Source: Escherichia coli (GTDB lineage: Bacteria; Pseudomonadota; Gammaproteobacteria; Enterobacterales; Enterobacteriaceae). Taken from it: a stretch of DNA of 64,000 bases. The DNA lies in the NCBI RefSeq assembly GCF_051903065.1, contig NZ_CP178438.1; one strand, given 5' to 3'. A program made the position numbers. How positions within the stretch are numbered: the first letter of the stretch is position 1; each line of letters begins with the position of its first letter. Below, one piece after another: positions 6,001 to 9,000 of the stretch.

Positions 6001-9000
6001 AAGAGATTGATGAATTACGCTGGTCGCTGTGCACAATAGCCATGAACACTGCCCATTTATCCTTCGAGTGCGTGGTGTTATTAGCAGAAAGATTGCGGTG
6101 GTTACAGGAGGAAAATACCGGGGAAATAGACGAAGAAGAACTGGAATCCTTTTTATATGCCATTGCGAAGGGGAATGTTTTTAACTTCCAGACCATTCTG
6201 CATCTGCCCGTTGCCGTGCAAAATGACACCATCGATTTTTACCAAATGTTCGCTCGGATTTGGTCATCGCATCCAGAATGGCTGACATTGTATTTAGCGC
6301 AACATCGCGCAGTGATTATCCCCGATGATGCAAAACTGCACAGAAATTTACTCCGCTGGTATAGCGCAGGTCGCCTGGGAATTCCCGAACTCCTGGATTA
6401 CGCCCGGTCGTGGCGGGAAGCTGAACCTGATAATGAAGATGCGCGTTATTATGAATACGCGCAACGCGTCTATTGTGGAGAAGGCAAAAGCCTGCTGGCA
6501 GAACTTTGTGACTACTGGCGCGAATATCCCTCCACCCAGGCGGATGCTTTAATGTTGCAATGGTGCCGTCAGCATCGGGTCGATTATTACCCATTAGTGG
6601 TGATGATGATTGAAGCGCGTGATCTGGTTAACGATCAGGGAAAACCGCTACTTTATGTCCCTGGTGACAGCGCTCGTACGCGTTTTCATTTATACGAAAT
6701 ACTCAGTGATGAAAAACTCTCTGCGCTGGGGCGTTCTCTGGTCGAGATGGTTTTGCACAAAGGACGTAAGCCGCGGATCTCACTCACGCGTGATACAGAA
6801 CATCCCTTATGGCCATTATATTTAGTTGCCAAACAATTAGTGCAGGCCAGCCAACCAACAGAAGAATCATTAATGCCGATCGTAAGCCGTCTTGATGCAG
6901 AAAATCGTTGTCCACTGGAAGCATTAATTATTCGTCGATTATTAATTCAGGCGGCGAATTTTACCGAGAAGCAAACTGTTGAACCGGAGCCGCAACCGCA
7001 GCCAATGCCCGTTGACGATGGTGGGCCAGGCTGTCTGGGCATCATTAAAATTATTTTCTATATTTTTATCTTTGCTGGTTTGATAGGGAAAATACTCCAT
7101 CTGTTCGGGTGACAGTCGACGTTAATGTGCGGGAAGCCCGGCAAGTAATCTTTCCGCATTTTTGTAATGTTGTTTGGCGGCCAGTTTTAACCATTTTTGA
7201 GATTCATAATGGTTAACATTAATACCTGAGCCATTTCTGTAGATCAAACCTAAAGTATATTGAGCATGAGCATACCCTTGTTCAGCTGCTTCCTTATACC
7301 AGAGAATTGCTTTACGGGTGTCGGGTTTGACCCCCAGACCTTTGAGGTAGATCCACCCCAGTTTACTTTGCGCGCGTGGATTTTCCTGTTCCGCTGATTG
7401 CTCATACCAGTATCTCGCCTGTGTATAATCCAGTGGTTTACCGTCGCTACCATGAAGATAAAATTCTCCAAGGCGATATTGCGACGTTGAGTGACCATGA
7501 ATCGCGGAAAGCTCCGTGGCTGCCGTGGTGAATGGAAGACTGCCCGGTGAGCTTAAATAATCAAAGGCAAAATTCACCATGGCTTTATCACGCAACGTCG
7601 TTTTCTTGGGTTGGCTAATACAGGTAATTGCTGCAACTATAAAAATTGCGAATATATACATTAATTTTTTATTCATGTGTGAATGCTTCGATTTTCTTTT
7701 TATTTTGAAAGCGTCAAGTTTATACTCATCAATAATAAAAAAGTAGTCAGTTAATGCACTTAAGGGATTATTAACAAATGAATAAGGAAGAACAATATCT
7801 TCTTTTTGCGCTTTCTGCGCCCATGGAAATACTTAATCAGGGTTGCAAACCCGCGCATGACTCGCCAAAAATGTATACCGGGATAAAAGAATTCGATCTC
7901 TCATCATCCTGGGGAATAAATAATCGTGATGATTTAATTCAGACTATTTATCAGATGACTGATGATGGTCATGCTAATGATTTAGCTGGCTTATATCTGA
8001 CATGGCATCGCTCTTCTCCTGAAGAGTGGAAAGCATTAATTGCTGGTGGCTCGGAGAGAGGGTTGATTTATACCCAATTCGTTGCCCAAACCGCTATGTG
8101 CTGTGGAGAAGGGGGAATCAAAGCCTGGGATTATGTTCGAATGGGGTTTCTGTCACGGGTCGGTGTGCTCAACAAGTGGCTGACGGAAGACGAGAGTTTA
8201 TGGCTGCAATCGCGCGTCTATGTACGAGCTCACCATTACTATCACAGCTGGATGCACTATTTTTCTGCCTATTCACTAGGGCGTCTCTACTGGCAATCTT
8301 CTCAGTGCGAAGACAACACTTCGCTACGCGAGGCGCTAACCCTGTACAAATACGATAGCGCCGGGAGTCGTATGTTCGAAGAACTGGCAGCGGGAAGCGA
8401 TCGTTTCTATGCCACGCTTCCCTGGCAGCCATTAACTGTCCAGCCTGAATGCCCGGTAACGCTTAAGGATGTGAGCGACCTATGAAAACATGTTGGCAAA
8501 TCCTCGAAATTGAAAGCACGACGCAAATAGACATTATCCGCCAGGCTTATCTTGCTCGCTTACCGTTATGTCATCCCGAAACCGATCCGCAGGGGTTTAA
8601 AGCATTACGCCAGGCCTATGAAGAGGCGCTGCGACTGGCGGTAAATCCTGTCGAGGAAGCAGATGATGAAGAAAAAGATGCCGCCGCTGAACATGAAATA
8701 CTACGTGCATTCAGGACATTACTGGATTCAGAAAGTGATCGTTTTCAGCCTTCCGCCTGGCAGAAATTTATTCAGCAATTAAATACCTGGAACATGGAGG
8801 ATGTCGATCAATTACGCTGGCCGCTGTGTGCAATCGCTATAGAAGCGCGATATCTTTCATTAAATTGTGCTTCTTTGCTGGCAGAGCGTTTGAACTGGCA
8901 TTCGTTTAATGACAGCGAAGGAATAGATGAGGAAGAAAGGGAGGCTTTTTTTGAGGCCATTCAGGCTGGTGATTGTTTCGATTTCCTTAGCCTTCTGGAA

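Follow-up and report, generated by a model that had tools for sequence, protein, structure and literature searches.

The window analysed here is a stretch of 64,000 nucleotides from an Escherichia coli contig (NZ_CP178438.1), positions 3800..11800 of which are up to 100% identical to E. coli chromosomes. Genes in that part run in the order leuS, ybeL, ybeQ, ybeR, djlB, ybeT, ybeU, djlC, hscC, rihA, gltL. Two of these encode J-domain proteins from the + strand: djlB (ybeS; 5685..7112), an open reading frame for a protein of 475 aa that carries the annotation djlB in E. coli genomes of identical sequence, and djlC (ybeV; 8482..9933), an open reading frame for the HscC co-chaperone, a protein of 483 aa annotated as 'co-chaperone DjlC'. 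Across their entire length the two share 50% identity, with no gap in the alignment of the tails. Convergent with djlC on the – strand is hscC (9993..11663; Pfam HSP70, 2.7e-116; annotated hscC), the gene for their specialised Hsp70 partner, in which a Kyte-Doolittle scan finds no hydrophobic segment. Each J-protein gene directly follows a + strand gene for a DUF1266 protein, ybeR (4981..5688; Pfam DUF1266, 2.4e-46) in the case of djlB and ybeU (7778..8485; 5.4e-45) in the case of djlC, and in both pairs the stop of the first gene overlaps the start of the second in an ATGA, at 5685..5688 and 8482..8485 respectively. The two Sel1-repeat genes, ybeQ and ybeT, lie on the – strand. A scan of 4700..10100 for promoters and terminators returned fewer sites than were found in shuffled sequence, and no NCBIfam model exists for any of DjlB, DjlC and YbeR. 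Many E. coli strains have lost the djlB/djlC/hscC locus by deletion or carry it as pseudogenes.

Tail anchors in these proteins are no new finding: that of DjlC has been demonstrated by experiment, and that of DjlB has been stated in print. The DjlC of that literature (Peschke 2018; Kluck 2002) is the very gene at 8482..9933, with the same protein and the same tail and no difference of any kind. According to a later account by the same group, experiment has established DjlC as a bona fide tail-anchored protein of the inner membrane, whose N-terminal domain is cytosolic and for whose targeting the transmembrane domain (TMD) is required and suffices (Peschke et al. 2018 J Mol Biol 430:389, via PMC6794478). 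The same source describes contributions of SRP, FtsY, DnaK and YidC to insertion, with contacts between DjlC and YidC detected by photo-cross-linking and only minor effects of SecYEG (PMC6794478). A review calls both DjlB and DjlC tail-anchored (PMC8215388); its DjlB is the very gene at 5685..7112, a paralogue of DjlC. [quoted passage not shown] Stimulation of the HscC ATPase has been shown only for DjlC (Kluck et al. 2002 J Biol Chem 277:41060, via PMC8215388), while for DjlB it is assumed from homology and gene proximity (PMC8215388). Our search of the literature found no direct experiment on DjlB localisation or ATPase stimulation, DjlB being treated by prediction and homology only, and essentially nothing relevant on DUF1266, or on DUF805 in connection with a J-domain.

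At the opposite end of the protein from the tail, the J-domain of DjlB is assigned to residues 1-55 (5685..5849, + strand), with a Pfam DnaJ match across residues 4-47. That match is weak (22.4 bits for DjlB and 19.5 for DjlC) and lies below the gathering cut-off of 27.8, and a Foldseek search with the DjlB model returns the J-domain 2dmx at a probability of 0.94 but with E = 1.4. The AlphaFold2 (AF2) model of DjlB contains the expected helical hairpin, made of helices 16-29 and 36-54 with pLDDT >90. At residues 31-33 (5775..5783, + strand, in djlB) both DjlB and DjlC have HPE in place of the HPD tripeptide expected between helices II and III of a J-domain protein (class C JDP); H31, P32 and E33 are invariant among 45 aligned relatives, and HPE has been described as the one tolerated variant of HPD, with DjlB and DjlC named explicitly (PMC13254874; PMC10410713). 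The middle domain is already covered by the Pfam family DjlB_C_2nd (PF27158), which appears in precomputed annotation of a 98%-identical cluster (P0151), of the DjlC clusters and of distant relatives. A Foldseek comparison of the DjlB model with the PDB gave nothing at E <= 0.001 and only weak resemblances to TPR-like or other helical-repeat proteins; we therefore found no solved relative for this domain.

The preliminary description of this DNA had drawn attention to the C-termini of the two J-proteins, quoting a terminal peptide from each and describing an acidic or Pro-rich disordered linker followed by one hydrophobic helix. Both peptides are present in the translations exactly as written. 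The coordinates given with them contain a single slip: position 6950 is one base off the djlB frame (6951 is in frame), whereas 9760..9933 in djlC is in frame. The DjlB peptide proper is encoded by 6981..7109, and 7110..7112 is the stop codon. The features as we now define them, all on the + strand, are a Pro-rich acidic spacer at residues 432-449 of DjlB (6978..7031), the DjlB tail-anchor helix at residues 450-475 (7032..7109), an acidic spacer at residues 429-457 of DjlC (9766..9852), and the DjlC tail-anchor helix at residues 458-483 (9853..9930, followed by the stop at 9931..9933).

To call a membrane span we relied on the Kyte-Doolittle scale, the Wimley-White octanol scale, a position-independent Hessa scale and the AF2 model. 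With 19-residue Kyte-Doolittle windows and a threshold mean of at least 1.6 (KD19), the sole windows that pass lie at the extreme C-terminus, with 450-468 of DjlB scoring 2.39 and 464-482 of DjlC scoring 1.99, and in both proteins just 0-7 residues separate the end of the hydrophobic segment from the C-terminus. The best windows elsewhere, 1.53 in DjlB and 1.36 in DjlC, both fall within the folded helical domain. The same scan reveals no N-terminal signal, the N-terminus being the J-domain, and no second membrane segment in either protein. Wimley-White octanol sums for the best windows are –12.3 kcal/mol for DjlB and –5.6 kcal/mol for DjlC, making the TMD of DjlB the more hydrophobic on both scales. 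On the simple Hessa scale DjlC sums to a slightly positive value, +1.41, and the hydrophobicity of its TMD is thus moderate; in the literature, too, the TMD of DjlC is the less hydrophobic one. Hydrophobic moments are low (0.24 for DjlB and 0.21 for DjlC, with mean Eisenberg hydrophobicities of 0.78 and 0.56), and therefore the tail helix is uniformly hydrophobic rather than amphipathic. By these sequence measures the predicted anchor of DjlB is as well supported as that of DjlC, and is the more hydrophobic of the two.

The AF2 model of DjlB, built from a 45-sequence alignment (mean pLDDT 88, pTM 0.70), is all-helical and contains exactly two segments of low confidence, 57-68, which lies between the J-domain and the middle domain, and 433-449, which is the spacer. 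Beyond the spacer the model ends in a helix of 24 residues, 451-474, with pLDDT of ~79-91. Twenty-four helical residues are enough to cross a bilayer. When each protein was shuffled 20000 times with its composition kept, a window of equal hydrophobicity arose within the last 26 residues in 7 shuffles of DjlB and 25 of DjlC; chance or low complexity as the origin of the tail is ruled out by these shuffles together with the conservation described below.

The spacer is biased in both proteins, but towards different residues, being Pro/Gln-rich in DjlB and Asp/Glu-rich in DjlC. Residues 431-449 of DjlB include 6 Pro among 19 residues and carry a net charge of –4 (the annotated spacer, 432-449, holds P6 G3 E2 D2), and the pLDDT of 433-449 is <50. 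In DjlC, residues 429-459 include 14 Asp/Glu (E9 D5) and 4 Pro among 31 residues, with a net charge of –11, and the spacer aligns to a gap-rich, hypervariable region of the family. When 67 non-redundant members were aligned with MAFFT, the spacer proved to range from 9 to 62 residues in length and to be rich in indels and in E, A, G, T, S, P and D, with gaps at a fraction of 0.59 and the commonest residue at a frequency of 0.39; the corresponding values for the TMD are 0.09 and 0.56. A variable spacer ahead of a conserved tail is the pattern that would be expected of a disordered tether leading to a constrained element.

Relatives were gathered from 1.84 billion representative proteins and a 90%-clustered collection, and were recovered in Escherichia, Salmonella, Citrobacter and Enterobacter. 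The terminal hydrophobic segment (KD19 of at least 1.6) is kept in 90 of the 98 full-length relatives, and a position 0-7 residues from the C-terminus is likewise kept in 90 of 98; the other eight comprise five with a KD19 of 1.49 and three that are truncated or frameshifted. The djlB alleles that diverge most within E. coli are 93.5-95.8% identical in DNA, and across the 26 tail codons they differ by four synonymous changes and a single conservative replacement (I453V).

More distantly, 29 of 33 representatives with both a J-domain and the middle domain have C-terminal hydrophobic segments. Most of these representatives are ~890-910 aa long and have two or three such segments near the C-terminus, and a Pfam DUF805 domain was matched there in three of the four ~900-aa representatives scanned. 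These ~900-aa proteins (for example P0042, P0021 and P0023) combine J-domain, DjlB_C_2nd and DUF805, show 30-37% identity over ~300-420 residues of J-domain and middle domain, and share with DjlB and DjlC a gene context in which a DUF1266 gene lies upstream and an HscC gene adjoins. They too are attached at the C-terminus, but through a multi-pass DUF805 domain with N-x-Y-G-P-P at its end rather than a single tail helix, so that strictly speaking they do not count as tail-anchored. The order DUF1266 then J-protein recurs in the loci L004, L005 and L006. At the P0042 locus, a DUF1266 gene overlaps the J-protein gene by 4 nt, and a convergent gene for an HscC-type Hsp70 follows. A DUF1266 gene also precedes the gene for an 805-aa relative that has a single terminal helix, and on one Salmonella contig three paralogues with tails are found together with two DUF1266 genes and one gene for an HscC-type Hsp70. 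The adjacency of an HscC-type Hsp70 gene to a J-protein gene recurs in unrelated genomes. Attachment to the membrane by the C-terminus therefore looks like a trait of the whole family, achieved through different anchors, of which the Enterobacterales form looks like a minimal, single-helix version.

[quoted passage not shown] The 3′ ends of djlB and djlC each encode a flexible, compositionally biased spacer and one hydrophobic alpha-helix of ~24 residues, which would act as a tail anchor because it leaves the ribosome only after termination. Insertion of the tail into the inner membrane would then be post-translational and would give an N-in/C-out orientation, leaving the J-domain and the all-helical DjlB_C_2nd domain in the cytoplasm, tethered at the membrane by the spacer of ~20-30 residues. 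There, the membrane-bound HPE J-domain would recruit and activate the cytosolic HscC that is encoded next door. We infer the topology, the recruitment of HscC to the membrane, and that DjlB behaves like DjlC. The features that the preliminary description had taken as the signature of a tail-anchored protein bear examination: the composition of both spacers and the low pLDDT of that in DjlB agree with its linker, the helix that it placed at the extreme C-terminus is the sole KD19 region of at least 1.6 in each protein and is modelled as a helix in DjlB, and this single terminal helix is conserved, has a low moment and is unaccompanied by any other segment or N-terminal signal. Its further proposal that the anchor places the J-domain at the inner membrane agrees with the literature and, for DjlC, with experiment as summarised in PMC6794478. 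The interpretation is therefore right, but rediscovers published knowledge.

In this architecture DjlB and DjlC resemble Flk and SciP of E. coli and the tail-anchored proteins of eukaryotes, in all of which a single C-terminal TMD is both signal and anchor and insertion is post-translational. The eukaryotic proteins are handled by GET/TRC40, EMC or SRP; to our knowledge, the GET pathway is absent from bacteria. Another J-domain protein, DjlA, is held by a single transmembrane helix with its J-domain at the cytoplasmic face of the inner membrane, where it works with DnaK. DjlA is a class C JDP and has the opposite polarity, with an N-terminal transmembrane helix, a C-terminal J-domain and DnaK as partner, whereas DjlB and DjlC have an N-terminal J-domain, a C-terminal anchor and HscC as partner (PMC8215388).

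The tail is conserved in more than its hydrophobicity. Among 50 distinct tails we find a fixed motif, [KR]-13 uncharged residues-[KR]-x-x-H, in which a basic residue stands at the position of DjlB K455 in 46 of 50 tails and at that of K469 in 43 of 49 (with an Arg one residue earlier in 4 more), and a His at that of H472 in 39 of 50. Neither a charged residue nor an indel occurs in any tail within the 13 residues that separate the two basic positions; small residues (G/A/S/C) cluster at 461, 464, 465 and 468, and only 3-6 residues follow the second basic position. There would not seem to be any obvious need for such a motif in a passive anchor, and it may serve helix-helix packing, recognition by an insertase or positioning at the interface. 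It is possible, though on balance we think it unlikely, that the architecture of the tail encodes a specific intramembrane function, whether self-association, recognition of a membrane-protein client or partner, or a signal for insertion or positioning. If so, the recruitment of HscC would be aimed at particular sites in the membrane and not at the bilayer at large. The presence of DUF805 in place of the tail in distant relatives would fit a membrane part that contributes to function.

The motif also bears on how deeply the tail enters the membrane. Since the uncharged core between the conserved basic positions is only 13 residues long, a full span needs one Lys or Arg to snorkel or to sit within the bilayer. 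Nor is the positive-inside rule neatly obeyed by a tail that puts a conserved basic residue and a His on what is presumed to be the periplasmic side. One could instead suppose a monotopic, interfacial anchor, in which the 13-residue core is sunk in the cytoplasmic leaflet while the C-terminus, like both basic residues, remains cytoplasmic. The invariant length of the core and the shortness of the sequence beyond the second basic residue are both what this would lead one to find, and a 14-residue spacing (~40 degrees) would put the two basic residues on roughly one face of the helix. However, hydrophobic residues precede the first Lys as well (450-454 in DjlB, 'GLWQVI' in Salmonella), giving a continuous helix of 24-25 residues, the hydrophobic moment of the tail is low, and the literature has DjlC inserted and in photo-cross-linking contact with YidC (PMC6794478), making us sceptical of a monotopic arrangement, which we regard as improbable.

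Conservation of tail sequence beyond mere hydrophobicity might alternatively reflect a protein-protein interface, with the tail packing against the helical domain, binding a DUF1266 partner, or serving as a pseudo-substrate for the substrate-binding domain of HscC. The last of these draws on the two conserved basic residues, as HscC is reported to prefer positively charged peptides (PMC8215388). Against an interface, distant relatives have a multi-pass DUF805 domain at the same position and in the same gene context, which argues that the conserved function is membrane attachment; moreover, a membrane halo has already been reported for a fluorescent fusion of the DjlC tail alone, and membrane insertion of DjlC is published (PMC6794478). 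We consider an interface very improbable. Reversible, peripheral binding by an amphipathic membrane-targeting helix, as in MinD and FtsA, where a short C-terminal helix likewise follows a flexible linker, deserves equally little weight, being opposed by a hydrophobic moment of 0.21-0.24 which, with a mean Eisenberg hydrophobicity of 0.56-0.78, describes a uniformly hydrophobic helix, and by a KD19 of 2.0-2.4 that exceeds the transmembrane threshold.

What this analysis adds to the tail-anchor account is support for the tail of DjlB, attachment across the family by different anchors, and a fixed motif in the tail; the finding of the anchors, being already published, adds no new biology. The tail anchors themselves have served as model substrates for post-translational membrane insertion in bacteria. 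For E. coli, anchoring of the J-domain at the inner membrane defines where HscC, the poorly understood third Hsp70 of this organism, can act, and it has led to the published proposal that the clients of HscC are membrane proteins, such as ones involved in Cd2+ tolerance.

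The C-terminal tails of the paralogous J-proteins DjlB and DjlC end in a conserved motif, found at 7047..7100 in DjlB (K455-H472) and 9868..9921 in DjlC (K463-M480), which we defined across 50 distinct family tails. A first basic residue (46/50 tails) is followed, free of indels, by exactly 13 uncharged residues and then a second basic residue (43/49), from which only 3-6 residues remain to the C-terminus. The histidine of the x-x-His that follows the second basic residue is present in 39 of the 50, DjlC itself having methionine, and fixed positions within the motif are enriched in small residues. 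Such a fixed motif is not obviously explained by a passive membrane anchor.

At the other end of these proteins, both J-domains carry HPE in place of the canonical HPD (5775..5783 in DjlB; 8572..8580 in DjlC), and both score below the gathering cut-off of the Pfam DnaJ model. HPE is invariant among 45 relatives, and has been documented previously as a variant of HPD (PMC13254874; PMC10410713). In distant relatives of about 890-910 residues (P0020-P0058; for example the gene at 5736..8465 of locus L004), the J-domain and the middle domain, DjlB_C_2nd, are fused to a C-terminal multi-pass DUF805 membrane domain that ends in N-x-Y-G-P-P, with ∼370 uncharacterised residues separating DjlB_C_2nd from DUF805. 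A literature search for DUF805 linked with J-domains found no paper.

The J-protein genes belong to a three-gene unit, comprising a Sel1-repeat gene on the minus strand, a DUF1266 gene and the gene for the tail-anchored J-protein, which is present in two tandem copies (ybeQ|ybeR-djlB and ybeT|ybeU-djlC) within 3840..9933. One Salmonella contig (L005) carries three J-protein paralogues. We also observed that the Sel1-repeat protein YbeT has an N-terminal hydrophobic segment directly after MNKK (residues 5-23; 7608..7664, minus strand; KD19 2.0), which by its sequence could be a signal peptide or signal anchor; a hydropathy scan of YbeQ, unlike YbeT, revealed no such N-terminal segment.

The convergent djlC and hscC genes are separated by 59 nt containing a strong GC-rich hairpin at 9954..9985 (GCCGGAUGC...GCAUCCGGC). 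When the surrounding 71 nt (9928..9998) were folded, the MFE was -26.4 kcal/mol (z = -2.45), and the predicted hairpin resembles either a REP-type element or a bidirectional terminator. GC content from ybeQ to djlC (4001..10000) is 0.40-0.49, against about 0.52-0.54 in leuS on its flank and 0.50-0.53 past hscC, which fits an accessory island, possibly one that is horizontally acquired or H-NS-silenced. Some members of the species are losing the djlB/djlC locus (3840..9933) by decay: among 5426 complete genomes, 3695 have the full djlB 3' end and 4372 have the djlC 3' end. Of two decayed strains (L002, NZ_CP134384.1; L003, NZ_AP027445.1), one combines a ybeQ-to-djlB deletion with an internal stop in djlC, while the other has an IS1-associated deletion that reduces djlC to its last 129 nt, adjoining an intact hscC.

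In both copies of the unit the end of the DUF1266 gene overlaps the start of the J-protein gene by ATGA (ybeR/djlB, 5685..5688; ybeU/djlC, 8482..8485), an arrangement which suggests that each pair is translationally coupled. Overlap of the two genes is also kept in distant genomes (L004, 5736..5739; L006, 743). Our literature search on DUF1266 found essentially nothing; the DUF1266 protein may be a third, uncharacterised component of the HscC system.
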